Source: Candidatus Undinarchaeota archaeon (lineage in GTDB: Archaea > SpSt-1190 > JASMDC01). Taken from it: a DNA stretch of 64,000 nucleotides. Shown one piece after another: positions 10,489-62,003 of the stretch. The position numbers were made by a program, and so were the translations under genes. The first letter of the stretch is position 1. Each line of letters begins with the position of its first letter. The DNA lies in NCBI GenBank assembly GCA_964519305.1, contig CAZFHY010000001.1:486218-550217 (forward strand), given 5' to 3'. Below the pieces are notes generated by a model. The model had not been told where the DNA came from and made no database searches. It saw only the letters and a list, made by a program, of their open reading frames with translations.

Positions 10489-10552
10489 CCACGCCTTCGC
10501 CTGATAAAGAGCTATAAATCGTACGCTCTCAACGGTTTTGGAGGCCATTTTC

Positions 10553-24554: not shown

Positions 24555-24600
24555 GACTACAGGATCCGCGTCAATGAACGCGGGAATGATGCTCTCGAGC

Positions 24601-38798: not shown

Positions 38799-39089
38799 GT
38801 TCAGTCATGCGGGCGCACATTAATTTAAAATGGACCATGTGAGTGCATCATTCCAACCGTCAACCTAAGCCGGAAAAACATGCGGGAAATATCGGGTTTG
38901 AGAGCCTTCGAACGTTGCGTGACCGTCCCGACGTTGACATATCCGCGTTTCCCTCGCATTATTGAAAGTGAAAACACCTGAAATATCCCCCTTGATTGTT
39001 TACTTTTCGTTTAGCGACCGTTGCGCAACCGTTTCAGGAAATCATTTTATACCGGGATGAACTAAGCCACTTCCGTTTAGGTGAACACC

Positions 39090-39674
39090 ATGCCGTCCAA
39101 CAAGAAATCTGCAAGGGGCCAAGCCGCGCTTGAGTTCCTCATGACGTACGGGTGGGTTCTAGTGATTATCGTTATCGCTGGCGCCGCCCTGTATTCGATG
39201 GGTATCTTGAACCCATCCACATATATGAAGAAGGGCTGCGTCGGCTTCGAGAAGATCCACTATAAGGACCATCTCTTCAAGACGAGCCCTGACGACACAG
39301 GACTCTGGACCGTCTGGTCCTCTGAGACCGAGCGCGAGAGCATCTTCCAGCTCCGTATCCAGAACGGCGCTGGCGAGACACTTCGCATCCGAGGTCTCGA
39401 TGTGGAGTACCCCGATGGTATCCACGTGACCTGGTCCGAGCGCGGGTACGACTGCGACTACTACAACACCGCAGACTCCACCGACTCGGGCTGCCAGGAG
39501 CAGAACGTGTCAGAGGCCGAGGTCACCACCCTCAAGATGGAGGATGTAGGCCGCGGAACTCTGGACCTCCGCTTCGGTACAGTGTACAGGTCCAAGGTGA
39601 AGGTCACCTTCGATGTGTTCAACGCACTGGCTGACCACACTGAGACCGCCATCTGCTCGGGTAAGCTCGAGTAG
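39090..39674 (+). CDS. Type IV pilin-like protein with class III signal peptide
   Basis: KKSARG|QAALEFLMTYGWVLVIIVIAGAALY, followed by a Cys-containing beta domain. Confidence 0.85.
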   Translation: MPSNKKSARGQAALEFLMTYGWVLVIIVIAGAALYSMGILNPSTYMKKGCVGFEKIHYKDHLFKTSPDDTGLWTVWSSETERESIFQLRIQNGAGETLRIRGLDVEYPDGIHVTWSERGYDCDYYNTADSTDSGCQEQNVSEAEVTTLKMEDVGRGTLDLRFGTVYRSKVKVTFDVFNALADHTETAICSGKLE

Positions 39675-39741: not shown

Positions 39742-40158
39742 ATGAAGAAGACCGAACGGAAATCTCGCATCTCCGTGCGGCCCCAGACACTCATCCTCCT
39801 GCTCATTCTTTCCCAAGCATTTGATGTAATTACGACCTACGTGGGCATCCAGCTCGGATTGACTGAACGGAACACTCTGATCGTACCAATCGCCAACGAC
39901 CTACTCAGCCTCATTGAGTTCAAACTTGTTTTCTTCTTCCCAATAGTACTCCTTCCTGTTGCCCTCCTGTACATCGCTTACATTGCATCTGTGACCACTA
40001 AACGGCACACGGACAAGAAATTACATACCGCCCCCCGAAAAGAGAGCCATTTATTCAGCAATCTGCTTCAGGGCCTACTTTTCTTCCTACTTGTCTGGAG
40101 TTGGGCTGTTATTGTCAACAACATAATCGGCATCGCTCACATAACGATAAGCCATTGA
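39742..40158 (+). CDS. DUF5658-like small membrane protein
   Basis: D..TTY.G...G..E.N pattern with several TM helices. Lower GC than its neighbours. Confidence 0.6.
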   Translation: MKKTERKSRISVRPQTLILLLILSQAFDVITTYVGIQLGLTERNTLIVPIANDLLSLIEFKLVFFFPIVLLPVALLYIAYIASVTTKRHTDKKLHTAPRKESHLFSNLLQGLLFFLLVWSWAVIVNNIIGIAHITISH

Positions 40159-40222: not shown

Positions 40223-41662
40223 TTATCCGGAGGACGCCTGAGCCCGGTTCAGTTCCTCGGCAGAGATCATGTCCCGGTTCTCGAAGAGCGTCACTGCATC
40301 GTACTTTCCGTAGTGGAGGACAGGTGCCCGTAACACGTATCCATCCATCACGTACTTCCGGAAAGCAGGATCGTTCCCAATACCGGAAAAATGGAGTTCG
40401 TTTTCCCCGTCAGGTTGCGGTGTGCGTTTGGCCACGAGCACGATGTAACGTGTACGATGCACTGAGACCGCCTCGATAAGGCGCTCGGGAGCCAGTACAC
40501 CACTAGTGACACGGACGTAGTTGGAATCGAGTTCATTACCACTTATCTCAAGACCTGACAAGAACGCGAGCGTTGGAGCAGCAATAGCATGCCCGAACAC
40601 ACGTTCGTCTGGATTCGAATGCGTGCTGACGTATTGCGAGTACTTCAAGAGGGCAAGTCCAAAGGGGTGACCGGTGCGTGCCGCCGAATAATGGGGCGCG
40701 TTCCAGAAAAAGGCCGCGACGAGCACGGCCACGATTATGACCCCAGCACTCTTTCCCCAGGAGCTCCACCGATCCAGTGTCCCCCCTGCGAACACGGAAA
40801 GAGGGACGAGCGGGAATATCAAGTACTGGAGGAATATACGCTTCTGGATGAGGATTAGAAAGGTGACGAGGGTAAAGAAGGCAGGGAAGGCCAGTGGTCG
40901 GTCCCGCCCACGCTCGATAAGAGAAGGAATGGCCGCTATGACGATCAGTGCTTCTGTAATAAGGAAGTTCTTGAGCACGCGAGCGCGGACTTCAAGATGG
41001 AAGGGCTCCTTCTGCATGTGGAAGAGCACAATCTGCTCAACCATCTGGTGAGGGCCGGCGATATACGCGAGCGCGCACCCGACAGGGACCGTAACTACCA
41101 GGAAAGCAAGAAGGAACTTTTTAACAGCTCCCCTCCGCCCCCACAGGTCGAAGAGGATGACAGGAAGGGTCACAACTGTGAAGAGCTTGGTGAGCACAGC
41201 GATCCCGCAAAGGACCCCAGCAGGAATCGGTCGCCGGGCATAATGTCGTTCTAGGGCCGCCATCGCGAACAACAGAGCAAGGACGTTCCCATCGGTCTGT
41301 CCAGACATCAAGAAGCCTTGTGAACTGAGGAGCAGGACGCAGGAGATCAGCGCAGCACGGTCATTATAGTATCGGCGAGCTAGACGAAAGCAGACAGCTA
41401 GGAGCGACACGTTCACGACCATAGCGATTGCTGTCCCGGCCATATACGTCGTCCCCAGGAACATGAAGACGGACGTGATGATGACGAGCATGACGGGCGG
41501 GTGTGCGAAGAAGAAATCCCTGTACGGTACACTTCCCCGGAGAGTGTCCCGGGCCATGAGGAAGTAGATGTTCTCATCGCTCGGCCGGGGGATGGTCGTA
41601 GGAGCATTGATCCAAGCACAGATGAGGAGCAGGATGATGAGGACCTTGGTAATGTTGTTCAT
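40223..41662 (-). CDS. GT-C fold glycosyltransferase (ArnT/PMT-like), paralog A
   Basis: DENIY..MA....G.VPYRDFFFAHPP, multiple TMs, LTK, QYL and an extracellular C-terminal domain. Start MNNITK matches paralog B. Confidence 0.85.
   Translation of the reverse strand: MNNITKVLIILLLICAWINAPTTIPRPSDENIYFLMARDTLRGSVPYRDFFFAHPPVMLVIITSVFMFLGTTYMAGTAIAMVVNVSLLAVCFRLARRYYNDRAALISCVLLLSSQGFLMSGQTDGNVLALLFAMAALERHYARRPIPAGVLCGIAVLTKLFTVVTLPVILFDLWGRRGAVKKFLLAFLVVTVPVGCALAYIAGPHQMVEQIVLFHMQKEPFHLEVRARVLKNFLITEALIVIAAIPSLIERGRDRPLAFPAFFTLVTFLILIQKRIFLQYLIFPLVPLSVFAGGTLDRWSSWGKSAGVIIVAVLVAAFFWNAPHYSAARTGHPFGLALLKYSQYVSTHSNPDERVFGHAIAAPTLAFLSGLEISGNELDSNYVRVTSGVLAPERLIEAVSVHRTRYIVLVAKRTPQPDGENELHFSGIGNDPAFRKYVMDGYVLRAPVLHYGKYDAVTLFENRDMISAEELNRAQASSG
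41045..41305. repeat. 261-bp tract identical to 42742-43002
   Basis: Base-by-base comparison at offset 1697. Extends to 40972-41305 with 3 mismatches. Confidence 0.9.
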
Positions 41663-41717
41663 GTCCGCGACAAGGGATGCGGGGGTCATTAAATCTTTAT
41701 GGGGCAGAAGCCGCGAC

Positions 41718-41900
41718 TCACCTTGTACCCATGTTGTCAAAGAGGACGATGGACTGCTCTCCGGTCCACCGTATGACCGGCGTCCGCAGCGTCCATCCAT
41801 CATATACTGGCGGAAAATCGTATCGTTGGCCAATCCCGAGAACGTAAAATCCGTTCATTTCCCGGATTCAGCTCGAATCCCTTTAAGATGAACATCGAGT
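41718..41900 (-). pseudogene. 3' remnant of a sixth GT-C paralog (C-type)
   Basis: Reads DFTFSGLANDTIFRQYMMDG / TLRTPVIRWTGEQSIVLFDNMGTR*, matching paralog C DYTFSGLGNNPVFTRYMMNGWTLRAPVLRWTEGRSIVLFENVGAG*, with a 4-bp loss in a TGGA run. Confidence 0.85.
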
Positions 41901-41919
41901 AAAGGTATCGGATTGACTC

Positions 41920-43359
41920 TTATTCTGAAGAGGCCTCGGCCCGGCTCAGTTCCTCCGGGGAGATCATATCACGGTTCTCGAAGAGCGCCACTACGTCATA
42001 CTTACCATAGTGAAGAACAGGCGCCCGTAGAATGTATCTCCCGAGCACATGATCCCGAAATGTGGGATCATTACCTATACCGGGAAAGCGTAACTCATGA
42101 TTCCCGTCAGCTTTTGGGATGCGCTTGGCCACGAGCACGATATAACGCGTTCGATGGATTGAGACTGCTTCGATGAGACGCTCAGGTGTCATAACTCCGC
42201 TCTTAATACGTAGATAGTTGGAATCCAGTTCATTGCCACTTATCTCAAGATCTGACAGGAACGCTAGCGTTGGAGCGGCAATCGCATGCCCGAATACGCG
42301 TTCGTCAGGATTCGAATGTGACCTGACATATCGTGAGTATTCAAGAAGGACGTGTCCGAAAGGATGATTGGTACGGGCAGCCAAGTGATATGGAGCAGTC
42401 CAGATGAACGACGCGACGAGTAAGACTATGATAAGGGCCTCGGTTCTCTTTCCCCGGTAACTCCACCTATTGAAAGTACCACCTGCTAACAAGGCAAGCG
42501 GAACGAGCGGGTAAATTAGGTACTGGGGTAAAATACGCTTCTGGACGAGGATGAGCAGTGAGACCAGTGTGAGGAAGGCAGGAATCGCCATGGGGCGCCC
42601 CTTCTTCCTTTCGATTAGCGACGGGATTGCTGCCAGTACGATCAGGGCGTTGTAACTAAGGAATTCCCTGAGCACGCGAGCGCGGACTTCAAGAGGGAAG
42701 GGCTCCTTCTGCATGTGGAAGAGCACCATCTGCTCAACCACCTGGTGAGGGCCGGCGATATACGCGAGCGCGCACCCGACAGGGACCGTAACTACCAGGA
42801 AAGCAAGAAGGAACTTTTTAACAGCTCCCCTCCGCCCCCACAGGTCGAAGAGGATGACAGGAAGGGTCACAACTGTGAAGAGCTTGGTGAGCACAGCGAT
42901 CCCGCAAAGGACCCCAGCAGGAATCGGTCGCCGGGCATAATGTCGTTCTAGGGCCGCCATCGCGAACAACAGAGCAAGGACGTTCCCATCGGTCTGTCCA
43001 GAAATCAGGAAGCCATGTGATCCGAGGAGCAGGGCACAAGACATCAGCGCGGCACGTTCGTTGTAGTATCGACGGGCAAGGCGGAAGAAGACGGCTAGGA
43101 ACGACACGTTCACGATCATGGCCACGGCGGTCCCAGTTAACCACGTAGTCCCCAGGAACATGAAGAAGGTGGTGATTATAATGAGCATCACGGGCGGATG
43201 GGCGAAGAAGAAGTCCTGGTAGGGTACGCTCCCCCGGAGCGTGTCCCGGGACATGAGAAAGTAGATGTTCTCGTCACTCGGGCGGGGGATTGAGGTGGGA
43301 GCATTGATCCAGGCACAGATGACGAGGAGAAGGATGAGGAGCTTGGATGTGTTGTTCAT
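41920..43359 (-). CDS. GT-C fold glycosyltransferase, paralog B
   Basis: Same motifs as paralog A, which is its closest relative; 479 aa. Confidence 0.85.
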   Translation of the reverse strand: MNNTSKLLILLLVICAWINAPTSIPRPSDENIYFLMSRDTLRGSVPYQDFFFAHPPVMLIIITTFFMFLGTTWLTGTAVAMIVNVSFLAVFFRLARRYYNERAALMSCALLLGSHGFLISGQTDGNVLALLFAMAALERHYARRPIPAGVLCGIAVLTKLFTVVTLPVILFDLWGRRGAVKKFLLAFLVVTVPVGCALAYIAGPHQVVEQMVLFHMQKEPFPLEVRARVLREFLSYNALIVLAAIPSLIERKKGRPMAIPAFLTLVSLLILVQKRILPQYLIYPLVPLALLAGGTFNRWSYRGKRTEALIIVLLVASFIWTAPYHLAARTNHPFGHVLLEYSRYVRSHSNPDERVFGHAIAAPTLAFLSDLEISGNELDSNYLRIKSGVMTPERLIEAVSIHRTRYIVLVAKRIPKADGNHELRFPGIGNDPTFRDHVLGRYILRAPVLHYGKYDVVALFENRDMISPEELSRAEASSE

Positions 43360-43418
43360 CTCCGTATCAAGGGATGTGGAGGGGAGTTAAATCTTTTTGG
43401 GGGTCGGGTAGGTCCGGT

Positions 43419-44825
43419 CTATCCGGCACCCACGTTCTCAAAGAGAACAATGGATCGCCCTTCCGTCCATCGAAGAACTGGTGCTCGTAGGGTCCATCCG
43501 TTCATCATGTACCGGGTGAACACCGGGTTGTTCCCCAGACCTGAGAACGTGTAATCCATCCCGTCCGCATTACCCTGACGTTCCCCAACAAATACGATGA
43601 ATCGGGGACGGTCTGTCTTTATCCGTTCAACGAACTCCGCTACGTCCAGTTGCCCGCTCGTGATACGAGCGTAGTTCAGGTCGAGCACATCGGCGCTCAT
43701 CCGTCGGTCGGCGAGGAACGCCAGGGTAGGGGCCGCTACCGCGTGACCGAGCACCGTGTCCTCAGGTGATGAGGTCGTGGCCACCGTCCATGCCATGAAG
43801 AGTAGAGCCCGACCAAAGGGTGTATCCGTCCTTGAAGAGAGGTTGTCTGCGACGGACCAGATCAGGTTCCCTGCAAGGACAAGGACTATGAGGACAGCGA
43901 AAGTACGGTCACGTGAGAACGCTCTATCGAGCGTCCCTCCTGCGAACACGGTCAGGAAGAAGAGGGGATATATCATGTATTGGATGTAGATGCGCTTCTG
44001 GGCGATTATCAATATGGTTGCGAGAACGAGCAGGCTGAAAATCGTACGGTTGCATGACCTGGAGGTTTTGCAGATAGCTGGGATAGCCGCGATTACAGCA
44101 AGTGCGTTCAGGGATAGGAACCGTACGATCACAGAGGTCCTTGCTTGTATCGAGTGTGGGTCCTTGGCGAGATGATAGAGCACAACGGGATTGACCACCC
44201 TTTCAACTCCCGAGATTGCACAGAACGTGCCCATGACGACAGTCAGCACTGCCGTCAGTGTGATAAGGAAGCGCCGGGTGTCGCCATTTCCCCCGGACTC
44301 GCGGAGCAGGTCGAACAGGATTACTGGGAGGACCACGACAGCAAAGAACTTGGTGACAACCGCGAACCCGCAGAGAATACCAGCCGTTGCGGGCCAACGC
44401 CTATAATAGGCAATCAACGCCGAAACGACGAACAGGAGCGAGAGGGCGTTCCCGTCCGTCTGTGCGGACATCAGGAAGCCCTGAGAACCAAGGAGGAGCA
44501 CACAGGACAACAATGCTGGACGTTCACCGATGAGACGACGCGTGAGGGCGAAACAGCCTATCAAGAGACCAAGTGATACCATTGTAGCCACAAATGTACC
44601 CACCTGCCACGTAGTACCTGCTGCAGCGAAGGTCGCTGTGAGAAGGATGAGCATCACGGGCGGATGGGCGAAGAAGAAATCCCGATAGGGTACGAGCCCA
44701 CGCCCCACATCCCTTGCCATGAGGAAATAGATATTCTCGTCATGGGGTCGTGGGACGGATGTGGGTGCGTTCACTAAGGCACAGACGATAAGAAGCGCGA
44801 TCAGGAGCCTCGTTGGAGTTCCCAT
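43419..44825 (-). CDS. GT-C fold glycosyltransferase, paralog C
   Basis: Motifs DENIYFLMAR, VPYRDFFFAHPP and QTDGN. Confidence 0.85.
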   Translation of the reverse strand: MGTPTRLLIALLIVCALVNAPTSVPRPHDENIYFLMARDVGRGLVPYRDFFFAHPPVMLILLTATFAAAGTTWQVGTFVATMVSLGLLIGCFALTRRLIGERPALLSCVLLLGSQGFLMSAQTDGNALSLLFVVSALIAYYRRWPATAGILCGFAVVTKFFAVVVLPVILFDLLRESGGNGDTRRFLITLTAVLTVVMGTFCAISGVERVVNPVVLYHLAKDPHSIQARTSVIVRFLSLNALAVIAAIPAICKTSRSCNRTIFSLLVLATILIIAQKRIYIQYMIYPLFFLTVFAGGTLDRAFSRDRTFAVLIVLVLAGNLIWSVADNLSSRTDTPFGRALLFMAWTVATTSSPEDTVLGHAVAAPTLAFLADRRMSADVLDLNYARITSGQLDVAEFVERIKTDRPRFIVFVGERQGNADGMDYTFSGLGNNPVFTRYMMNGWTLRAPVLRWTEGRSIVLFENVGAG

Positions 44826-44876
44826 GTCCGTGGTGAAGGGTGGCGCTGGTGAGTTAAATCTTTATTGCGCCCCGGC

Positions 44877-46292
44877 TCAGGCCGGACCCGAACCGGCCCT
44901 CCGCTCAAGGAGAAGAAGGACGTCGTATTGACCAAGCGGGCGTTCTAACACTCCCACGTAGTGCTCGAGGGCGAACTGTCGGAAGTCCTCGTCCAACGCA
45001 ATCCCAGCAAAGGAGTAGCGAGGACGGCCTTCCATCGGTATCCGGCTGGCCTTTAGCACGAGGTAGCTCGCTCGGTCGGCCTCGATGGCCTGTATAAGCT
45101 CGTCACCACTGAGGATACCGCTAGCTATCCGTTCATAGTTCGTGTCAATCACGTCACCGCTCATCCGACGGTCGGCGAGGAAAGCAATTGCAGTGGTCGC
45201 CGTACTATGCCCTGATATGCTCTCGTCCGGGCCTGTGGACTCGCGCACCTCTCGGGCTATATCGAGTATGGCACGCGAATACACCGGCTGGCCCTGTCTG
45301 GCCAGATGGTAACCGAGCGACGACCATCCAATGCTCGCGATAAGGACCACGATGACGATCGTCCGGAGCGCTCCTCCCCGTTCCACGACCGATCCAAGAA
45401 GCCCGCCCCCCAGTGCGGTGCAAGCGAGGAGCGGGTAGATAAGATAGGGGTAAACAAGACGCTGCTGAACTAGCACCAGCACAGTGGCCAGGATGAGAAA
45501 GGCAACCAAGGTGCGCGGCCGGTCAGGAAGTCTCCAGAGGGCGACAGCTCCCGCGACCACCGCGAGGGTGTTCGTACCGAGGAACGTCGCCAGGACCGCT
45601 GCGCGGGCATCGAACGTGAAGGGCTCTTTATGGAGGTGATAGAAAACAACGGAATCGAGCACGGGACCGTACCCGGCAATGGTCGCGAACGCCAGTGACA
45701 CGGGGATCACCACTGCAGCGATACCAAGGACGAACATCTGAGCGTCACGTCGCCTTCCAGGTGAGAGATACAGATCTATCAGTATCGCTGGCAAGGCGAC
45801 CACCGCGAAGAGCTTGGTCAGCACTGCAGTACCACACAGAGCACCGGCCGTGAACGGCCGTTTCGCCATGTGCCGCTCTAGAGCGAGCACACAGAATAGC
45901 AGGGAAAGGGCGTTCCCATCGGTCTGCCCAACCTCCAGAAGTGCCCTGGAGCCGAGGAGGAGGGCTGTCGCAAGGAGTGCACCATTCTCCCCGAAGCTCC
46001 GGCGGGTCAAATGGAAACAGCCGAGAAGGAGGCCGACGTTCACCGCGGTAGCGACAAGGGTCCCTGCCCACCACGTGGTGCCCAGTATCATGAACGTGCC
46101 TGCGAGCACGTAGAGCATTACTGGCGGATGGGCGAAGAAGAAGTCCCGGTATGGTACGGAGCCACGGAGCACCTCCCGCCCCATGAAGAAGTAGATGTTC
46201 TCGTCACGGGGAAGAGGGACCGATGAGGGTGCGGCCGCTACTGCACACAGGACGAGCATCGCGAGGAGGAGGAGCTTGGAGATAGTATCCAT
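44877..46292 (-). CDS. GT-C fold glycosyltransferase, paralog D
   Basis: Motifs DENIYFFM, VPYRDFFFAHPP and QTDGN. Confidence 0.85.
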   Translation of the reverse strand: MDTISKLLLLAMLVLCAVAAAPSSVPLPRDENIYFFMGREVLRGSVPYRDFFFAHPPVMLYVLAGTFMILGTTWWAGTLVATAVNVGLLLGCFHLTRRSFGENGALLATALLLGSRALLEVGQTDGNALSLLFCVLALERHMAKRPFTAGALCGTAVLTKLFAVVALPAILIDLYLSPGRRRDAQMFVLGIAAVVIPVSLAFATIAGYGPVLDSVVFYHLHKEPFTFDARAAVLATFLGTNTLAVVAGAVALWRLPDRPRTLVAFLILATVLVLVQQRLVYPYLIYPLLACTALGGGLLGSVVERGGALRTIVIVVLIASIGWSSLGYHLARQGQPVYSRAILDIAREVRESTGPDESISGHSTATTAIAFLADRRMSGDVIDTNYERIASGILSGDELIQAIEADRASYLVLKASRIPMEGRPRYSFAGIALDEDFRQFALEHYVGVLERPLGQYDVLLLLERRAGSGPA

Positions 46293-46354
46293 GTCCGTTG
46301 GTAGTGTTGTTGGGCTGATTCAATAAATGTTTGCCGGAGTGTACCTAATGCCCC

Positions 46355-47782
46355 CTACGATGCGGTCAGCGGGGGAACACCACGACTACCGCGGTCACGA
46401 GGCTCGAGGAGGACGAGGATGCCCTCCGCGTCCGTGGGACGGACATCGATCGTACGCCATCGTTCCTGCACGGATGCAGCGAAGTCGGGATCGCCCCCAA
46501 TTCCTGGGATGAAGAAGTCGTCGCCCTGAGCGGAACGTCGTCCCTTGAGCACAAGGTAGCGTGTCCGATCATCTTCGATGGCACCCACCAGGTCAGAACC
46601 GCCCATCATACCGCTCGTGATACGGGCATAGAATACGTCCATTACGTTCGAGCTCATGCTCCGGTCTGCGAGGAAGGCGACGGTGGCGGCAGCTACGCTA
46701 TGTCCGAACACTGTATCCTTGGGCGTCGTCGTTTCCCGGACACGATTCGCAAAGACGGTAACTGCATCACCGAACTGGCTGGACGCGAAACGGGCCCATT
46801 GCCACTGGACCGTCCAGACGAGATTGAGGCAGAGGACGAGCACTAACACTACCGCAGCAAGGTCCCCACGTTCTGTCACCTCATCCAGGGCGCGGCCTGC
46901 AAGTACAGTAAGTAGGGCGAGCGGGTACACAAGGTACTGGATGAGGATGTTCTTCTGGACGAGGATGAAGAGGGAAAGGAGCAGGAACAGTAGCATGACC
47001 GGCCCCGGACGGGTGCGACCGTGGAGCCGGATGGCCGCTAATCCCGCCACGATCGCTAGCGGGTGGGCTGAAAGGAAGCCGACGATCACACCGATACGCT
47101 CGTTCAACGGGATCGGTTCCTTTTGTAGATGGTAGATGACCACCGGCCCGGTCACAGCGTCCATCCCCGATAGGTGGACGAAGAGCAGTGTCACCGGCAG
47201 GGTTACGGCCACGAACGTCGCGATAAAACGAGCGACAGGACGTCTGCCGCGACCGGTCGCGAGCAGGTCGAACAGGATGACCGGGACGGCCATTACAGCG
47301 AAGAGCTTGGTAAGCACAGCCACCCCGCAGAGCAGCCCCGCAGAGAGGTGTTTTCGGCCCAAATGGCGTTCAAGGGCAAGGACCATGAACAGCAGCGAAA
47401 GCGCGTTCCCATCGGTCTGAGCGGCGAACATGAAGCTCCGTGAGCCGAGCAGGAGTGCGCTCGCGAGCACCGCTGCACGCGGCCTGTGGAGACGGGCACA
47501 CAACCGATAGCATCCTATCAGGAGCCCGAGGTTCACCAGTGCGGCCACCAGTGTCCCCGCCCGCCACGTCGTGCCAAGGAGCATGAAGGAGCTGGCGAGC
47601 ACATAGAGCATGGCCGGCGGATGGGCGAAGAAGAAGTCCCGGTACGGCACTGATCCACGGAGGACCTCCCGGGCCATGAGGAAGTACACGTTCTCGTCCC
47701 CAGCGAGCCGGACGTCCATAGGGGGATTCACTACTAAGTAAATGACGAGGATGACGATGAGGAGGGTCTGGGCCCGGTCCAT
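46355..47782 (-). CDS. GT-C fold glycosyltransferase, paralog E
   Basis: Motifs DENVYFLMAR, VPYRDFFFAHPP and QTDGN. Start MDRAQ set by alignment to the paralogs. Confidence 0.85.
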   Translation of the reverse strand: MDRAQTLLIVILVIYLVVNPPMDVRLAGDENVYFLMAREVLRGSVPYRDFFFAHPPAMLYVLASSFMLLGTTWRAGTLVAALVNLGLLIGCYRLCARLHRPRAAVLASALLLGSRSFMFAAQTDGNALSLLFMVLALERHLGRKHLSAGLLCGVAVLTKLFAVMAVPVILFDLLATGRGRRPVARFIATFVAVTLPVTLLFVHLSGMDAVTGPVVIYHLQKEPIPLNERIGVIVGFLSAHPLAIVAGLAAIRLHGRTRPGPVMLLFLLLSLFILVQKNILIQYLVYPLALLTVLAGRALDEVTERGDLAAVVLVLVLCLNLVWTVQWQWARFASSQFGDAVTVFANRVRETTTPKDTVFGHSVAAATVAFLADRSMSSNVMDVFYARITSGMMGGSDLVGAIEDDRTRYLVLKGRRSAQGDDFFIPGIGGDPDFAASVQERWRTIDVRPTDAEGILVLLEPRDRGSRGVPPLTAS

Positions 47783-47842
47783 GTCCGCTCCTTCCCTCCA
47801 CGGACCAGAGTAATATATAATTACCCGCATTGGCCCTTCTCG

Positions 47843-49240
47843 ATGACGGGTGTAGACGAGCGTGCTTTCGTTGTTGGCATTCTTGTCGCACTCGGCCTTC
47901 TGACGACCAGCTTCCTGTTCACGAACGAGGCGCCACGGTTCAGCCTTGCCCTTGCCCTCGGGATCAGGGGTGAGGTCACTATCGACAGGTACCTTTCGCA
48001 GGTCATCCACCCCACCTTCCAGCCCATCGATTTCGCGGTCAAGGACGGACGGTACGTCAGCGATAAGGGACCACTCCAGTCCGTTCTCGCCGCTCCGCTG
48101 ATGTGGCTCCTCTGGTGGGCGGACGTCCCCCTGATGACGGGTGTGTACCTCGCGACGCTCCTGCTCGCAGTGCTCCCCACTGCGCTCACGGCCCTGCTAA
48201 TCTTCTGGTTCGGTCAACACGTTCACCGCACGGGGACTGTCTCGCCCGCGCTCCCGGCGCTCGTGTACGCCCTCGCGACCCATGCGTTCTTCTATGGGAC
48301 CATGTTCTTTGCGTACGCCCTTACAACGTTCCTCGCTTTCGCGAGCTTCTATCTGTTGTTCACCGCTGATCCTAAACAGGACCGGGTGAGAGCGATCGCT
48401 GCGGGCGTGCTGGGTGGGCTTGCTGCTACCAACGACTATCCGACCATACTCCTCATACCAGGCCTTCTCCTCTACTGTCGTATGAAAGCCCCCCGGCTCG
48501 TGCCCGTATTCCTCGTGGGTGCGTTGGCGGCCCTATCCCTTCTTCCCATCTACCATTACACGCTCTTCAGTGAGTTCTCCCCCCCACATAAGTACCATAA
48601 CATGAGAGATACCCACCAACAGGGATTGTTCTTGGGCGTGGGCACCTTCACTCCCGAGGCGTTCCCCGGGACCACTGTTGGTCCCTCACGAGGTCTTTTC
48701 GTCATCTCCCCTGTGCTCGTAGTCGCTGTCGTGCTCCTCAGACGGCTCCACAGACAACATCCTGCTGAGGCCGTCCTTGTCGTTGCAGTCGTACTGGTCC
48801 TCTTCCTGTTCCAGACCTCCTTCATCGACTGGAAGGGCGGTAACTCCTTCGGCCCTCGCTACCTCGTACCCGCCATTCCTTTCCTCGTACTCCCGCTCCT
48901 CACACTTCACCGTAATGGCCCCCTCTGGCCGGTGTTCCTTTCCCTCCTGATCGTCTCGTTCCTGATCAACCTGGTGTGCGCAGCGTCCTACCTACCAAAG
49001 ACCAAGGACAGGTATCCTGTAGAGGGCGCGTTCCTCCGCTGGACCACTGGGACACAGGTATTCAAGCTGATCATTGAGACAGGTGAGCCCTATGAGGACG
49101 TTACCCTACGACCCAAGGTACATCCGTTCCTCTACTGGGCGGATCTCGACGATAACGAAGCGCTCGTGCGGCTCCCTACCCTTCTATCTGGTCTTATCGG
49201 GATCGTGCTGTTCCGCCGCGCCATGAACTGTAAAGACTAG
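47843..49240 (+). CDS. Multi-TM GT-C-like membrane protein (second family), paralog of 60564-61952
   Basis: Motifs TNEAPRFSLA, YVSDKGP, P.RGLF..SP, W.GG.SFGPRYL. Confidence 0.65.
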   Translation: MTGVDERAFVVGILVALGLLTTSFLFTNEAPRFSLALALGIRGEVTIDRYLSQVIHPTFQPIDFAVKDGRYVSDKGPLQSVLAAPLMWLLWWADVPLMTGVYLATLLLAVLPTALTALLIFWFGQHVHRTGTVSPALPALVYALATHAFFYGTMFFAYALTTFLAFASFYLLFTADPKQDRVRAIAAGVLGGLAATNDYPTILLIPGLLLYCRMKAPRLVPVFLVGALAALSLLPIYHYTLFSEFSPPHKYHNMRDTHQQGLFLGVGTFTPEAFPGTTVGPSRGLFVISPVLVVAVVLLRRLHRQHPAEAVLVVAVVLVLFLFQTSFIDWKGGNSFGPRYLVPAIPFLVLPLLTLHRNGPLWPVFLSLLIVSFLINLVCAASYLPKTKDRYPVEGAFLRWTTGTQVFKLIIETGEPYEDVTLRPKVHPFLYWADLDDNEALVRLPTLLSGLIGIVLFRRAMNCKD

Positions 49241-49285
49241 CTCGCGGCCATCCTTTTAAAGGATGATATGCATTTGAGTGCCACC

Positions 49286-50035
49286 ATGAAAGCGGTCGGT
49301 GAGAAGGTGGTGATGGTCGTCCCCGTGTACAACGAGAAGGAGAACATCGCTCCTTTCCTCCTCGACATGGAGAAGGTCGCATCATCATTCCCAGCTGCCT
49401 TTACCATCCTCTTCGTCGAGGGCGGTTCTTCCGACGGTACAGGGGATGCCGTGGACGAGGCGGCCGCTCGTCTCCCCGCCCTGGTCAGCGTGCTCCACGA
49501 GGAGAAGAAGGAGGGTCTCGGCGCGGCCTACCTCAAGGGATTCGCCCGGGCCCTGAAGGACCCTGACGCCGTCTATATAGGTGAGATGGACGTGGATGGC
49601 TCTCATGACCCCGATGTGCTCCCAAAGCTCCTGAAAGCCGTTCAAGAGGGGTATGGGATGGCCTTGGGCTCACGGAGTGTAGATGGCGGAGGAACACCCG
49701 ACTGGCCACTCCGAAGACGCATTATCAGCGGAGGAGCGAACCTTCTCGGACGGGCGGGCACGGCGTTCTCCATCGGTGACGTCACGACCGGTTATAGGCT
49801 CTACCGCCGGGAGGTGCTGGACGATATCGACCTCGGTGCCATCAGGACCCGTGGGTACGCGTTCCAGCTCGAGATGGTATCAGCCGTGCTCAATGCCGAT
49901 TTCACCGTGGCCGAGGTGCCTCTGGTGTTCCACGACCGCGAACGAGGGGCCTCCAAGCTCCGCTCCGACGACATAATCGAGTACTTCCTCCTATCCATCC
50001 GACTCATGTTCCAACGGATACTGGGCAGGAAGTGA
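49286..50035 (+). CDS. Polyprenol-monophosphomannose synthase-like GT2
   Basis: Motifs VPVYNEKENI, GLGAAY..GF, MDVDGSHDP, GSR, D.TTGYRLY, GYAFQLEM. Confidence 0.88.
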   Translation: MKAVGEKVVMVVPVYNEKENIAPFLLDMEKVASSFPAAFTILFVEGGSSDGTGDAVDEAAARLPALVSVLHEEKKEGLGAAYLKGFARALKDPDAVYIGEMDVDGSHDPDVLPKLLKAVQEGYGMALGSRSVDGGGTPDWPLRRRIISGGANLLGRAGTAFSIGDVTTGYRLYRREVLDDIDLGAIRTRGYAFQLEMVSAVLNADFTVAEVPLVFHDRERGASKLRSDDIIEYFLLSIRLMFQRILGRK

Positions 50036-50732: not shown

Positions 50733-52874
50733 TCACCGGTGGTGGAGGTATGCATCCATCCACTGGGACCAGTACTGCACCGGGTTCTTCACAGGCACAG
50801 GATCTTCATTGTTCCCGTTTGGCGAGGGATTGCGGCCTTCAGGCAGGGAGAAGAGCTCGTTGTTGTAGAACACCGCCTGCTCCTCCACCATATGAGCCAG
50901 ATTGCTATCAAGGACATCACGGATGACGTCCTCTTCCCCAACGGACTCTAAAAGGCCGATGAGGTACGGAGTGTCCCGGGGCCACACCACGGCCTCGTGG
51001 TACTGCTCGTCGCCGTAGTAGATACGCTCGTCGGAGTCCTTGACCAGGATACCGAAGGCCTTGCCCCCCCGCTCGATTAGCAGGTTGTCACGGGTGGTGT
51101 CCCATACCCTGCGCAGTTCGTCTTTCGAGAAGACATCCGTACCTAGCATGGAAGCAGCGACTACCGCAGGTGAGCCTCGGGTGTCGTCCTTCCGGCCGTT
51201 AGCGTCCACCAGGTTGTAGAGGAACCCTTCCTGGTCGTTCCAGAACACGTCCTTGTAGCTGGCGGTCCCCATAGCGTGAAGGCTCTCGCACCGTTCGGCG
51301 AGCTTATCGTCACCGGCATTGCGCGCCACCTCGGCACCATGGGAGAGCATGGTCAGCCACTGTGCGTTGACCTCTGGAAGGAAATATGAGGGCAGGTAGA
51401 ACTCGTGCCGCGCCTGGTCACCGCCAACCTCGCGCACGCGTTCCTCCTCCCATCCGCGCGGGATCCGCTCGGGGAGCATGTGGCCACCCACCCAGCGCTT
51501 GGAGTCGGTCCAGGTGTGCCAGGCAACTGAACGGATGAGACCGTTGTCCGTCACAACGGGTGCCCCGTCCTCGATCCCGGGATCGGCGGCGGAGAACCCG
51601 TCAAGAGTTCGTCGGAGGCTTCCAAGGACCTCCTGTGAGAATGATCGGTCACCGCTGTCCGCAGCGATGCGCAGCCCTGTGTCGATGCACAGGAGCGTGG
51701 CGTCCACGGCGTTATAGCTCACAGGCTCGCCAGCACGCTCGGGAAGCTTGTTGGGGATGCGACCCGTGTCGTCCTGGAGCTTGAGTCCGGCGCGGACAAG
51801 GTCCTTGACGAAGTCATCGCCCTTGATCGTCCGGTATGTCTCATAGCTCGAGCGGACGCCTTCGTAAGCGTCGCGGAACCAGGCGTTCCTGAACCACCAG
51901 CCACCGGCCTCGGGTACAGTCGTATCGCCCACGCGGATGCCGAAATTGGCCAGAGTTACCGCGCGGTTGAGCAAGAGACCCTCGCGCTCGTCACTCGGGT
52001 CCAGTCCGAGGTTCTGAGCCATGGTGGTGATGCGGTACTCCTCGGCACGCTCGTTGGTCGCATGTGTCCGGATCGCGTTCTGGTAGGCATCGCGCACAGC
52101 ACCTTCGCCGCGCCCGGCCGCGAACACGACCTCCAGGTCCTCTCCGTCAGTCACATCGGCCTCTAGCTTGCCAGCGAACGTCGGGTGCTTCCACTCCTCA
52201 CGGAACACGATGCCTTCAGGCCCCTCTGTCCGGGAGCCCGATCCGAGCTTGTAGCCCCAGGGCATGGTCCGGCGGAAGTCCTCTGCGCGTGCGTTCTGTG
52301 CTCCGAGGAGAAGATACCTGTCGCCACGAGCTGCGAACAGCGCGCCGGTGCCGGAGTCCACCCACGAGCCGATCTCATGCGGCGAGGAACCGTCGTACAT
52401 GTGGCGGATGTCCACGAGCGGGCTCACCGATAGGTGGAGACCGTTCTCCTGGCTGTCGACATGGTACCGTACACGACCTGTGATACCATCAGCGTCGCCT
52501 CCGTCGAGGAGGAAGTAGTCAACGTCGACCGAACCGACGTTCTCGCCATCGCGTATCATGTCGTAATGATAGACGGCCTTATGGGCGTGGGCGGTGACCG
52601 AGGTGGGCTTCAGGTCGAGCCACTGGTCACCCTGACGCACACCGAACGCCATGGAGTCGAGATACTTCCAGTTCTCACCCTCGGAATGCACGTTCAGGCC
52701 TTCATAGGAAAAGTCACGGTTAGGGGCCATATAGATGCCCTGGTCCGGGAGGACAGAAGCGGAGAATACCGAGAGCGACATCTCGGCCTGGGGACGTCTG
52801 AGCACGACCCGTTGATTGCGGGCGAATCCCCAGTCTGGATTCTCCTCACAGTCAATGGAGTATCCTGTCTCCAT
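50733..52874 (-). CDS. Amylo-alpha-1,6-glucosidase (glycogen debranching enzyme)-like
   Basis: Motifs AG.WWF...WFRD, GRIPN, YNAVDATL, TWTDS, EVNAQW, YH...VWP, Q.WS. Start METGY follows a BRE-TATA. Confidence 0.85.
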   Translation of the reverse strand: METGYSIDCEENPDWGFARNQRVVLRRPQAEMSLSVFSASVLPDQGIYMAPNRDFSYEGLNVHSEGENWKYLDSMAFGVRQGDQWLDLKPTSVTAHAHKAVYHYDMIRDGENVGSVDVDYFLLDGGDADGITGRVRYHVDSQENGLHLSVSPLVDIRHMYDGSSPHEIGSWVDSGTGALFAARGDRYLLLGAQNARAEDFRRTMPWGYKLGSGSRTEGPEGIVFREEWKHPTFAGKLEADVTDGEDLEVVFAAGRGEGAVRDAYQNAIRTHATNERAEEYRITTMAQNLGLDPSDEREGLLLNRAVTLANFGIRVGDTTVPEAGGWWFRNAWFRDAYEGVRSSYETYRTIKGDDFVKDLVRAGLKLQDDTGRIPNKLPERAGEPVSYNAVDATLLCIDTGLRIAADSGDRSFSQEVLGSLRRTLDGFSAADPGIEDGAPVVTDNGLIRSVAWHTWTDSKRWVGGHMLPERIPRGWEEERVREVGGDQARHEFYLPSYFLPEVNAQWLTMLSHGAEVARNAGDDKLAERCESLHAMGTASYKDVFWNDQEGFLYNLVDANGRKDDTRGSPAVVAASMLGTDVFSKDELRRVWDTTRDNLLIERGGKAFGILVKDSDERIYYGDEQYHEAVVWPRDTPYLIGLLESVGEEDVIRDVLDSNLAHMVEEQAVFYNNELFSLPEGRNPSPNGNNEDPVPVKNPVQYWSQWMDAYLHHR

Positions 52875-52983
52875 GTGGCACGGTTTTGCGGGACCGCCGG
52901 TATTTATACCTTTCCCACCCCCATGCCGTGTCACTTGGACAAGGGCGCGGGTTGTGACCGTCACCACTGCGGGAACGCCTGGC

Positions 52984-54036
52984 CTACTCCAGATCCTCAG
53001 CGATCTTTGCGTAGATCGTGAGATACTGGTCGGCAATGGCGTCCCATGTGAATCTTTCTTCGACTCTTTGTCGCGCATGCTTCCCAAACTCCTGACGCAA
53101 TCCCTCGTCATCCTTGAGAGTGCGCCCGTACTTTACCAGCCCCTCGTAGTCCTTGGCGAGGAGGCCTGTGCTCCCATCGACGACCACGTCCCGGTTGCTC
53201 ACGACGTCATATGCGAGCACTGGCTTGCCGCAGGCACAGGCCTCCAGGATGGTGAGGGTCATCCCTTCCCATCCACTGGCCGTAGCGTAGAACGCTGCGC
53301 GGCGATAGGTATCGATCAGGTCCTCCTCGCTCAGCCCCGTCATTATGTCCAGCTCGACACCGAGCTTGGAGGCCAATAGCATTAGCTCGTCCTTCTGGGG
53401 ACCACGTCCGATAATCTTGAGGGGCATGTCGATGTCAGCTGCCAGTTGTACGAGCTGCTCGACCCGCTTCTGCCCTATGAGCCGGCCAACGAAGAGCATG
53501 TAGCCTTCGTCCTCCCCCGTGGGGGTGAACGACCTAGTGTCCACTCCATTAGGGATGTAGGTCGGATCCTTGACCCTGTACGTACCCTCCAGCTCCTCTT
53601 TCTGGGTGAGGGATACGGTGGTGACTTGGTGCATCCTACGATATAGCGCCGTAGTAGCTCCCAGGAATCCGGCCCGGGCTATTTTCTTTGGGGCCAGGGC
53701 CGGGTCCAAGGCCATGCTGTACCATCCGTGGTACGTGCAAAGATAGTTCCGTCGGCTGTTGCCCAGGGCCGCCCAGTTGAGCACTGCATGATGGAGGTGG
53801 AATATCCCGGTCTCGTTCAGCATCCGGTTGCGGACGGTCGTGAGCATCCAGAGCACCTTGTGACGGGTGTCCTTGGTCTTGACCACCTCGATCTCCAGGT
53901 TTCGGAGGTTCGGGTAGTCCACCTCGAACCCGCTCTCTGCGACCAGGACCTTGACGGGGTGGACCTTCCTGACATGATCGATGAGGCCGAACATCACCCG
54001 GTCGATGCCCCCTCCCTCGATGAAGGTGTTGTTCAC
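52984..54036 (-). CDS. GT4 glycosyltransferase
   Basis: Motifs IPNGVD, FVGRL...K, WEGMTLTILEA.ACGKP. Start codon is problematic (see findings). Confidence 0.85.
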   Translation of the reverse strand: MNNTFIEGGGIDRVMFGLIDHVRKVHPVKVLVAESGFEVDYPNLRNLEIEVVKTKDTRHKVLWMLTTVRNRMLNETGIFHLHHAVLNWAALGNSRRNYLCTYHGWYSMALDPALAPKKIARAGFLGATTALYRRMHQVTTVSLTQKEELEGTYRVKDPTYIPNGVDTRSFTPTGEDEGYMLFVGRLIGQKRVEQLVQLAADIDMPLKIIGRGPQKDELMLLASKLGVELDIMTGLSEEDLIDTYRRAAFYATASGWEGMTLTILEACACGKPVLAYDVVSNRDVVVDGSTGLLAKDYEGLVKYGRTLKDDEGLRQEFGKHARQRVEERFTWDAIADQYLTIYAKIAEDLE

Positions 54037-59840: not shown

Positions 59841-60545
59841 ATGGAGGAGACGCGGTCCGTATCCGTAATCTTCCCCTGTTACAACGAGGAGCATAACGTC
59901 GAGCAGGCCGTGTCCGAGACACTCGACACCCTTGGCGACCTCGACCTGGAGGTCATCGTGGAGGAGGACGGCAGCACCGACCGGACGGCCGAACTCGCAC
60001 GCACCATTGCCGACAGCGATCCCCGGGTCCGTGCCCTCTCCTTCCCCGGAGCGCGCCTGGGGAGAGGAGGTGGTTTCCTCAAAGGCGCGGAGGAGGCGTC
60101 AAAGGACGTCATCGTGCTCATGGACGCCGATCTGGCCATCCACCCACGACATGTAAGGGACGCTCTCGAGCGGATCACGGCCGGGGCGGACCTCGTGATC
60201 GGTTCGCGGAACGCTCACGGAGGGCGCCGAATCGTGGACCAGACCTGGGCCCGGATCCTGACCGGTGTGGTCTACCGGACGCTCGTCCGCCTGCTGTTCT
60301 TCCTACCCTACAGCGACTTCCAATGCGGCTTCAAGGTTATGCGCCGTCGTATCCTCGACGACATCGACCTTTCCCACGGTGACTGGGAGTTCGACACCGA
60401 GCTCATCTGGAAGGTCCACCGCACAGGGCTCAGGATCGAAGAGATGGGCATCGTCTGGACCGAACGCGGTGACTCCCGACTCCGGATCTTCCCCGACGCG
60501 TTCAGGATGCTCAGAGGGATTCTCCTTATGCGTCTGGGCAGATGA
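59841..60545 (+). CDS. GT2 polyprenol-phosphate glycosyltransferase (DPG/DPM synthase-like)
   Basis: Motifs FPCYNEE, DGSTD, MDADL, GSR, DFQCGFK, FDTEL. Confidence 0.88.
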   Translation: MEETRSVSVIFPCYNEEHNVEQAVSETLDTLGDLDLEVIVEEDGSTDRTAELARTIADSDPRVRALSFPGARLGRGGGFLKGAEEASKDVIVLMDADLAIHPRHVRDALERITAGADLVIGSRNAHGGRRIVDQTWARILTGVVYRTLVRLLFFLPYSDFQCGFKVMRRRILDDIDLSHGDWEFDTELIWKVHRTGLRIEEMGIVWTERGDSRLRIFPDAFRMLRGILLMRLGR

Positions 60546-60563: not shown

Positions 60564-61952
60564 TCATACCATTGCACGTTTCAGCAGGACAAGGCCTACA
60601 GCGCAGGCAAGGAGCGACGGGAGCCTGACAAGGGCCTCATTACCGTCCAATCCCATGCGGTAGAACGCGAGGTGTACCTTGGGTCGCGCCACGATTATCT
60701 CGTAGGGATCGACCTCACCCGTGTCCATCACGAGACGTCGACCGCTATACCATCTGGCAAGGAGGCCTGCCACCGGATTCTCGTCATCACCGGGGTAGTG
60801 GGAAACGGCACCAAGAAGGTTCACCAGGAACGAGGTGAGGAGCAGTATCATGAACACAGGCCGGACAGCACCCCTTCTGCGCACGGCGAGGAGCGGTAGT
60901 ACGAAGAAGGGCATGCCTGCCGCCATGTACCGTGGGCCGAAGGAAATGCCGGCACGCCAGTTAAGATGGGTGACATGGAATCCCATGAGGACGATGAACA
61001 TGGCCAGGACCAGGTACGCCTCGCTGGTATGGAGAGAACGGAACCTGAACCAGAGCACGGCGGCCACGATCAGGACCGGGCTATAGAAGAAGAGACCCCG
61101 CTCGGGTGAGAACGTCATTCCAAAGGGCGCCTGTGGATCAGGGATCCCCCATTGGTACCACACGCCCTGCTCACGTGTTTCCGCAAACGTCGCATGGTAC
61201 TTGTACGGGAGGCCGAACGGATCACCGAGCATGGCATAGGCATAGAGCGGAAGGAGGGAGAGCACCAGGCCACCCGATATGATGAACCTGACGGTCCAGC
61301 CGGGGCGTCTCAGCGCACAATAGAGAAGGAGGGCGGGGAACAGCAGAAGTGTCGCGAAATCCGCCAGACCCGAGAGACCGGCGAGCGCCCCTGCGGCCAA
61401 CGCACTACGACCATCCGGATTCCGGTCGCCAGCATGCAGGACCATGAAGCTCGCGACGGCAAGGAAGGAGGCCATGCTGTACGGGAAGAAAACGGTGCCG
61501 TAGTAGAAGGCGTTCGTGCACAATGCATAGGCAAGGGCCACGAGCGCAGGATTGATGTCCCCCGGCCTGTGGACCGAGCGACCGAACCAGAAGATCAGCA
61601 GGGCGGTGAGGACCGTGGGAAGACCTGAAAGGAGCAGGGTTGTCAGGAATACGGTCGTGCGAAGATTAGCGCCGGCCACCTGAAGGATGCGCACGAGGGG
61701 TGCGGCCAGTACGGACAGGAGCGGACCCTTGTCACTGTAGATCGTACCGTCCTTCACGACGTAGTCGATGGGAGGGAACTGCGGGTGAATGACGTCACGG
61801 ATGTAGCCTCCGATATCGACCGAACCGTCCAGCCCAAGGGACATGGCGAGCGAGAACCGCGGTGCTTCGTTCGTAGAGAGGAAGCAGGTGGTGAGGAGGG
61901 CGAAGCAGACAATGAGCCCCCCCACCAGAGTGCGGTCGTCCAGGCAGGCCAT
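60564..61952 (-). CDS. Multi-TM GT-C-like membrane protein, paralog of 47843-49240
   Basis: Motifs TNEAPRFSLA, YSDKGP, PERGLFFYSP, SFGPRY, NEALVRLP. Confidence 0.65.
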   Translation of the reverse strand: MACLDDRTLVGGLIVCFALLTTCFLSTNEAPRFSLAMSLGLDGSVDIGGYIRDVIHPQFPPIDYVVKDGTIYSDKGPLLSVLAAPLVRILQVAGANLRTTVFLTTLLLSGLPTVLTALLIFWFGRSVHRPGDINPALVALAYALCTNAFYYGTVFFPYSMASFLAVASFMVLHAGDRNPDGRSALAAGALAGLSGLADFATLLLFPALLLYCALRRPGWTVRFIISGGLVLSLLPLYAYAMLGDPFGLPYKYHATFAETREQGVWYQWGIPDPQAPFGMTFSPERGLFFYSPVLIVAAVLWFRFRSLHTSEAYLVLAMFIVLMGFHVTHLNWRAGISFGPRYMAAGMPFFVLPLLAVRRRGAVRPVFMILLLTSFLVNLLGAVSHYPGDDENPVAGLLARWYSGRRLVMDTGEVDPYEIIVARPKVHLAFYRMGLDGNEALVRLPSLLACAVGLVLLKRAMV

Positions 61953-62003
61953 CCGTGGCATTATCTAGGACGTAAAGAGTTTTATTTCCCCCGCCCGGCC
62001 GCT

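Follow-up and report, generated by a model that had tools for sequence, protein, structure and literature searches.

Five tandem GT-C glycosyltransferase genes in an uncultured marine archaeon: probable surface-glycan enzymes with a slow history of duplication and loss

Why does an archaeon keep five copies of one membrane glycosyltransferase gene side by side, and does it use them to vary its surface? The question is raised by a 64,000-nucleotide stretch of DNA (the window; Candidatus Undinarchaeota archaeon, GenBank assembly GCA_964519305.1, contig CAZFHY010000001.1, positions 486,218 to 550,217), whose minus strand carries five head-to-tail paralogs of 468-479 amino acids (aa): A (40223..41662, 479 aa), B (41920..43359, 479 aa), C (43419..44825, 468 aa), D (44877..46292, 471 aa), and E (46355..47782, 475 aa). 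A first-pass annotation had placed these genes correctly and had read them as GT-C glycosyltransferases forming a recombining birth-and-death repertoire, one that varies acceptor specificity for purposes such as virus evasion. Our analysis agrees on the enzyme class and departs from that account on most of the rest. In our judgment, the array probably encodes subfunctionalized enzymes for the last transfer step in a multi-component system of surface glycosylation, and its sequences are best read as the product of slow birth and death with stable survivors.

Assignment to the GT-C class was examined by sequence profile, fold, and active site. All five proteins matched PMT_2 (PF13231) above its cut-off of 26.1 bits (A, 32.9; B, 32.5; C, 31.6; D, 48.7; E, 45.8), and the fold of paralog D, the copy modeled, agrees. 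The AlphaFold2 model of D (pLDDT 96, pTM 0.94) retrieved ArnT as the first Foldseek match (E 6e-10), and in a wide structural search the top 20 matches were all GT-C-fold chains (Z 13.7-29.5), with the next match at Z 6.2. Pmt (29.5), ArnT (29.4), and AglB (28.1) led the ranking, followed by STT3B, ALG12, ALG9, PglB, AftA, ALG3, and Gpi14 (19.2); PimE was the weakest GT-C match (13.7). The alignment with ArnT covers the whole length of D, including the C-terminal domain (422 residues, root-mean-square deviation (rmsd) 3.8), at 13-14% identity. A single-protein search of PDB sequences yielded nothing at E<=1.

The predicted active site is conserved. Residues D30-E31 align to the PDEGRY motif of ArnT (D55/E56) and to the second Asp of the Gpi14 DxD motif, and the matching residues of both enzymes are described as catalytic (PMC7801869, PMC12653191). 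The pair is intact in all five array genes and in every array-type protein aligned (14/14), and so are K160, H219, K222, Y283, and D383; the alignment also included 78 full-length relatives, most of them chosen among the 150 top-scoring hits of a profile search. An Asp/Lys pair (D125 in 12 of the 14, K160 in all) is typical of the array type and absent from most of the 78 distant relatives; it falls at or beside ArnT D158/K203, which form a salt bridge there, in a register that may be off by a few residues. Around the predicted pocket, loop positions vary between clades and are largely constant inside each clade. Together, the PMT_2 matches, the fold, and the intact motif residues identify the array products, at the level of sequence and model, as GT-C enzymes with a predicted intact active site, and the fold and a neighboring DPMS-like GT2 suggest that a polyprenol-phosphate sugar is the donor.

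Divergence among the copies is uneven along the protein. A and B are 79% identical and every other pair is 42-49% identical. Mean paralog identity falls from 75% (first loop) to 53% (transmembrane core), 39% (residues 201-320), and 38% (C-terminal domain). The first loop is indeed near-invariant (DEN[IV]YF..VPY[RQ]DFFFAHPP in 5/5), but QTDGN, which had been assigned to it, belongs to the second outer loop (residues 123-127), and two related proteins have ETSGN in its place. The C-terminal domain is as divergent as had been proposed, but not specially so, given the equally low value for residues 201-320.

Placement in a narrower family was less successful. No ArnT (GT83) model appeared among the NCBIfam matches of any of the five proteins at E<=0.01, nor did PMT (PF02366; Pmt/GT39) match any of them at that threshold; the 'glycosyltransferase family 39' in the NCBI names of relatives is an automatic label. 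GT87 (PF09594, cut-off 25) is borderline, with A over the cut-off at 26.3 bits, B at 23.2, D at 19.8, and no match for C and E. The hidden Markov model assignment that the first-pass annotation had proposed as a check gives PMT_2 for all five, with GT87 borderline and no curated ArnT match. PIG-M (GT50) does not fit either, as the first D of DxD is Pro or Ala in 5/5 and PF05007 matched only C, at 16.4 bits against a cut-off of 23.4. The WWD motif of AglB/STT3 (GT66) is absent from the array proteins, whose C-terminal domain begins [FLS]GH[AS]. The ESM Atlas returned generic PMT_2 clusters only, and among viral contigs seven pattern matches included no relative, so no virus-borne copy was found at that sensitivity.

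The structural ranking raises the possibility that the array enzymes are protein O-glycosyltransferases of Pmt/TMTC type, each serving a distinct surface-protein client, such as pilin, chosen by its C-terminal domain. Pmt1-Pmt2 tops the structural list, tied with ArnT (Z 29.5, rmsd 3.2, 332 aligned), and Pmt has the DE motif as well, at D77/E78 (PMC7801869). A possible acceptor is also at hand: 550 bp from A lies a gene (39081..39674, plus strand) for a probable type IV pilin-like protein with one N-glycosylation sequon, and surface-layer (S-layer) genes adjoin distant homologs of the array. We take the neighboring protein to be pilin-like from its N-terminal RGQ-AALEF signal-peptide pattern; it has no Pfam or NCBIfam match, so the pilin flank reported earlier stands by that pattern, and its link to the array is one of proximity alone. 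Moreover, Pmt aligns with residues 1-336 only, whereas ArnT, AglB, and ALG9/12 cover the C-terminal domain too, and PF02366 matches none of the array proteins. According to one source, O-mannosylation had not been described in archaea as of 2016 (PMC4973528). We consider this explanation unlikely.

The sequence profile points elsewhere, to an ordered extracytoplasmic assembly line in which each paralog adds one sugar to a glycolipid or a glycosylphosphatidylinositol (GPI)-like oligosaccharide, in parallel to PIG-M/V/B or ALG3/9/12. The profile prefers GPI mannosyltransferase 1 (Gpi14/PIG-M, E 1e-18) over ArnT (4e-6) and ALG12 (4e-4), with shared G.xPY.rD and YH motifs; ALG12 and ALG9 align across the whole D model (Z 23-24); the host genome has GGGP synthase and one PIG-L-family gene; and clustering and joint retention suit a pathway. 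However, about 20 bits of the profile match are composition bias, and Gpi14 ranks lower structurally (Z 19.2, 281 aligned), lacks the C-terminal domain, and has a first DxD Asp that is absent in the array. A PIG-L-family gene is also commonplace, being present in 7 of 14 control genomes; loss of B is tolerated; and one copy suffices in distant relatives. An assembly line of this kind therefore seems to us quite unlikely.

How did the array come to hold five genes? An assembly artifact was ruled out, as contigs from 4/4 public sequencing runs span all four gene junctions; in run X7 the B-C junction is spanned only via overlapping short pieces. The host, an uncultured marine archaeon, is represented by a genome (G000) of 3.63 Mb in 42 contigs, 99.8% complete, with the window on contig C1; the nearest named homologs carry the label Candidatus Undinarchaeales archaeon, a DPANN order. 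The sole other genome of the genus compared, that of a sister species (G001, 98% complete), has the same neighborhood with four array genes, the orthologs of A, C, D, and E (79-92% identity; A 90%, C 79%, E 92%). No counterpart of B was found there by profile search, which returned four members only, and a metagenome contig of the same species (L018) carries the same four genes. In a midpoint-rooted tree of 30 proteins, 15 of them array-type, the array-type proteins group together (99/99), clades E, D, C, and A/B are each supported at 100/99-100, and A of the host falls beside A of the sister species (97/93).

The spacer between B and A retains a trace of how the pair arose. At 41722..41868 (minus strand; ends approximate) lies a decayed copy of the C 3' end, disrupted by a frameshift and detected as a tblastn match to C residues 414-467. 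This remnant defines the duplicated unit as the C tail, the spacer, and a gene (1641 bp, 80% alike), the mark of an unequal crossover from which the B/A pair derives. Because the A/B synonymous distance outside the conversion tract described below is 0.67-1.33, as against 0.38 overall for A orthologs, and because the remnant is less similar to the C tails of host and sister species (72% and 73%) than these are to each other (85%), the duplication would be older than the species split, with one copy lost in the sister species.

A and B have since exchanged sequence. A conversion tract of ~300 bp (permutation p<0.001) spans 42696..43002 in B (codons ~120-221) and 40999-41305 in A, with 261 nt identical between the two in the window assembly. 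Sites joining A to B number 28 and sites joining either to the sister species 0, which indicates that the tract was converted after the species split. Its perfect identity could be taken to mean a very recent conversion, which we doubt: in the run assemblies the two copies collapse into a single 307-bp contig with variant letters, and the tract alleles are swapped among database proteins, either one occurring in A or in B; the true A/B identity of the tract is probably 97-98%. Chimeric database proteins may likewise be misassemblies. For a third species, a second A (P0006/P0008) and a second D (P0003/P0028) could each represent a paralog, a co-occurring strain, or a chimeric assembly, and were left out of the duplication counts. 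Homogenization of the first-loop motif by conversion was also considered and set aside in favor of constraint or very old exchange: the fraction of identical codons in the loop is 0.61 and 0.68, as against a codon-usage expectation of 0.49-0.50, and reaches 0.59 across species, and the conversion scan flagged only short D/E runs there, one of them cross-species.

The central proposal of the first-pass annotation, a repertoire whose copies actively recombine and come and go so that surface glycans change against viruses or for host recognition, predicts ongoing exchange and diversifying selection. Apart from one A/B tract, neither was found in the two species and four runs compared. Nei-Gojobori ratios of nonsynonymous to synonymous substitution (dN/dS) between host and sister orthologs are 0.14 for A, 0.22 for C, 0.14 for D, and 0.09 for E, among 24 other gene pairs of the compared stretch with values of 0.04-0.20, so that paralog C is the highest of 28. 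The C-terminal domains, with dN/dS of 0.05 (A), 0.21 (C), 0.14 (D), and 0.10 (E), are under purifying selection as strong as that on the rest of the protein, and the per-domain comparison, which had been proposed as a check, put no array domain above 0.35 (upper bootstrap bound 0.60). Quartet scans of 9/9 clade pairs found within-species and cross-species sites equally rare (0-5 per bin, as against 7-58 ortholog sites), and in these two-species scans no exchange among A/B, C, D, and E since the split was detectable. Across the four runs, 8 kb contained six variant sites, four of them inside the A/B repeat, and no joint. This sampling is narrow and contigs drop rare variants; two of the four runs may be the source of the window DNA, and the two studies may be one campaign.

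Some observations do favor such a repertoire. Copy number differs between the species (5 vs 4), as does that of a second GT-C-like family in the compared stretch (2 vs 3); there is one conversion tract and a duplication scar; a B/A chimera (P0043), the swapped tract alleles, and mosaic proteins of a further lineage are present in databases; and variable glycosylation clusters are known in Haloferax (PMC5867893). However, the breakpoints of the chimeras fall at the ~300-bp repeat, which also interrupts contigs, and misassembly is an equally good explanation for them; the quartet and dN/dS results stand against the proposal. Birth and death can be seen, and it is slow (B absent from the sister species, the C remnant, one A/B tract), while A, C, D, and E are one-to-one orthologs. 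A fixed, orthologous array free of recombination, the state named earlier as contrary to the proposal, is what we find for C, D, and E and, the A/B pair aside, for the A lineage. An evading, recombining repertoire is therefore very unlikely, in our estimate, and we return to slowly turning over specialists as the preferred explanation.

Putative promoter sequences are consistent with separately used genes. A TATA-like box (TTTAW/TATAW) lies at -31 to -37 of 5/5 array genes, compared with 1.4% of random 20-nt windows, and similar AT-rich boxes precede the four genes of the sister species. A box before each gene suggests a separate promoter for each.

The neighborhood offers candidates for the remaining steps of a glycosylation pathway. 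Past E and a 60-bp spacer that contains the TATA-like box of E (47783..47842) comes a divergently oriented gene for a putative GT-C protein of a second family (family 2; 47843..49240, plus strand, 465 aa), with 66 bits to the NCBIfam LA_3751/3752 putative glycosyltransferase family, below its cut-off of 200. It is followed by a DPMS-like GT2 (49268..50035, plus strand; Glycos_transf_2; PDB 5mlz, Dol-P-Man synthase, E 3.9e-32), a candidate polyprenol-phosphate-sugar synthase that could supply the donor. A second DPMS-like GT2 (59841..60545, plus strand; PDB 5mlz, E 3.5e-20) neighbors a second putative family-2 GT-C (60564..61961, minus strand), which scores 58.9 bits to the LA_3751 family, below cut-off, and matches the array-family profile weakly (E 3e-6); the two family-2 genes are 51% identical. 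Both GT2 genes qualify as linked candidate polyprenol-phosphate-sugar synthases, the linkage being one of position only. These flanks, together with further GT2/GT4 genes, hmgA, and uppP (cut by the left edge of the window), are as first annotated. The host genome encodes uppS, uppP, AglB with WWDYG (away from the array), and a 12-member short-GT2 family, besides the GGGP synthase mentioned above.

Distant relatives give a similar picture. A genome-contig scan gave 296 stretches, of which the best 80 were retained (76 loci); leaving out L023, which holds an array of the sister-species type, and adding two class relatives gave 77 distant loci. One family member is present in 64 of them, two in 6, and three in none, the open reading frame (ORF) caller having recovered none in 7; where at least 3 kb is available on each side, 3/44 loci hold more than one. 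In 10/77 loci, all archaeal, the gene stands head-to-head with GtrA or a DPMS-GtrA fusion, 0-57 bp apart, and in 21/77 an S-layer-like gene (Pfam confirmed on 2) lies within 4.6 kb. By analogy, these neighborhoods point to a three-component scheme and to surface glycans. Several records in L024-L098 labeled 'uncultured Methanosarcinales archaeon' have their genes in the order found at Woesearchaeota loci and may be mislabeled.

In the scheme we favor, a DPMS-like GT2 would put a monosaccharide on polyprenol phosphate, the lipid-sugar would then be flipped across the membrane, and each GT-C enzyme, using the Asp-Glu pair of its first outer loop, would move the sugar outside the membrane to a surface glycan, either lipid-linked or already protein-borne. 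A single ancestral gene would have duplicated in tandem within this genus, its copies becoming four stable specialists (A, C, D, and E) with their own promoters and probably a distinct linkage or acceptor site each, in the manner of embC-embA-embB. Later turnover would have been slow: B was added by a further duplication, A and B came to share a conversion tract, and the sister species lost one gene. We infer the activity, the lipid-phosphate donor, the glycan acceptor, and the division of labor from the fold, conserved motif, and history described above.

Several points weigh against this scheme. The fold score of ArnT is tied with that of protein O-mannosyltransferase Pmt, in the membrane part only, and the best PDB sequence-profile match is Gpi14/PIG-M, not ArnT. 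No GtrA flippase was found in the host genome by a search that took in GtrA, not Wzx-type families. An S-layer-like protein of the host (C3:181628-184396, 922 aa) is encoded on another contig and has only two sequons, compared with 7-12 in most of those beside distant homologs. The distant loci are syntenic, and the neighborhood counts may stem from just two or three lineages and should not be read as 31 events. Mosaic signals in proteins of a further lineage (P0006, P0008, P0029, P0030, and P0037) would fit more exchange than was found between host and sister species; P0006, for example, is 95% identical to A of the sister species over residues 1-40 and ~65% identical elsewhere. Finally, the distinct specificities we propose for the copies follow from sequence divergence only.

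The array is also one case among many in its genome. The host has 44 PMT_2 matches (40 over cut-off) and the sister species 35. Fifteen class relatives with genomes of 0.6-1.2 Mb yielded 1-8 each, and 24 other archaea 0-12; counted per megabase, the density in G024 and G030 is about the same as in the host. The five array genes make up 5/44, and 22/44 fall in a different, 24-member family with its own tandem run (C1:271298-292818; seven members, four in tandem). By our own ORF calls and thresholds, the 2,920 called ORFs of the host include 93 tandem arrays, 6 of them with four or more genes. With 93 tandem arrays and 44 PMT_2 matches, the five-gene array is one instance of a genome-wide habit, and its earlier description as the best candidate for an undescribed system is overstated. 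It is an ordinary gene-family expansion in an unusually sugar-enzyme-rich genome, and we see no evidence of a new diversification mechanism. Such a genome might accumulate tandem duplicates neutrally or for dosage, leaving largely redundant copies, as the 93 arrays and the dispensability of B in the sister species would allow. However, purifying selection has preserved, across species, each of the copies at 42-49% identity to one another, and redundancy should have led to decay of the kind seen in the C remnant, so that we consider redundancy highly improbable and retain specialization as the preferred account.

Other features of the host genome were also noted. Several of its PMT_2 genes adjoin members of other expanded families of 26, 18, 11, and 9 members, which by sequence appearance we take to be radical-SAM-like (26, 18), U32-peptidase-like (11), and carbamoyltransferase-like (9). 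This arrangement suggests many surface-glycan tailoring loci. Paired genes for proteins of ~600 and ~940 aa, from 17- and 18-member families, stand side by side ~16 times across the genome (for example C1:2714-9330 and C9:17887-26187), an example of the ~600-aa protein starting with a pilin-like RAQ-IS pattern, and at C7:59340-78565 three secreted-looking proteins of ~2,100 aa lie in tandem.

Several further features were noted in and around the window. A small membrane protein (39742..40158, plus strand), weakly DUF5658-like (19.9 bits, below cut-off), lies between the pilin-like gene and A. Between the orthologs of window 58812-59792 and 59841-60545, the sister species carries an additional short GT2 and a further family-2 GT-C, its third (L014/L015; G001:C73, about 44900-47950), an insertion that marks the pair of GT2 and family-2 genes as itself a duplicating or mobile module. 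At the place of window ~33545 the sister species carries a ~1.9-kb insertion (L014:3184-5246) with an ORF that resembles an IS110-type transposase. Window 10538-15691 (plus strand) is a 1717-aa ORF with no Pfam match. Three six-hairpin glycoside hydrolases (GH15/GDE-like), a phosphofructokinase, a GT4, and TrmB (15854-17848, 26646-28517, 50733-53111, and 23340-26525) surround the array and look like a storage-glycan or trehalose metabolism set.

We found no published description of the array or its family in the literature searched, which included few subscription journals; supplements may list the genes. On the likely reading, the locus is a clean, small example of one GT-C gene expanding into specialists, and its five closely comparable enzymes, from an uncharacterized and largely DPANN family, provide material for questions of GT-C acceptor choice. 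Were the assembly line true, this family of hundreds of uncharacterized, mostly DPANN proteins would be the prokaryotic line nearest to eukaryotic PIG-M in sequence, and this genus, whose two genomes have 35-44 PMT_2-type genes, would have arrived on its own at a battery of lipid-donor glycosyltransferases like that of the endoplasmic reticulum lumen. The wider interest lies in the host, a 3.6-Mb DPANN-type archaeon whose 44 PMT_2 matches, against 1-8 in its class relatives, imply a very elaborate surface coat. The first-described Undinarchaeota had an average genome of 0.66 Mb (PMC7414124), and DPANN genomes of ~4 Mb have been published in a paper whose main text does not contain the word 'glycosyltransferase' (PMC10634959).

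Among known systems, ArnT (GT83; PDB 5ezm/5f15) resembles the array proteins in its whole-length fold, with an outer C-terminal domain, and in its DE motif, while the array proteins are ~70 aa shorter and have a His aligned with ArnT K85. Archaea are not known to make lipid A. GPI mannosyltransferase I (PIG-M/Gpi14, GT50; PDB 9wno, 23gx) is the best profile match and its catalytic Asp aligns, but the array lacks the first Asp of DxD, has an extra C-terminal domain, and reaches a structural Z of only 19.2. In Haloferax volcanii, AglS is the Dol-P-mannose mannosyltransferase for the S-layer N-glycan (PMC4973528). It is an archaeal precedent for the transfer of a lipid-phosphate sugar onto an extracellular surface glycan. 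AglS is not known to occur in tandem copies. The mycobacterial embCAB genes are stable, non-redundant tandem GT-C paralogs with an internal promoter (PMC2885622). The array shares with them its stable tandem GT-C paralogs and differs in belonging to another GT-C family (EmbA Z 14.5), the Emb proteins exceeding 1100 aa. EmbC serves lipoarabinomannan. Three-component transmembrane glycosylation systems combine a GT-A synthase, a GtrA/Wzx flippase, and a GT-C enzyme (PMC8035078). The array GT-C genes likewise stand beside a DPMS-like GT2, and their distant single-copy relatives beside GtrA or DPMS-GtrA; the array differs in being archaeal and in having five tandem GT-C genes and a second GT-C family beside one GT2.

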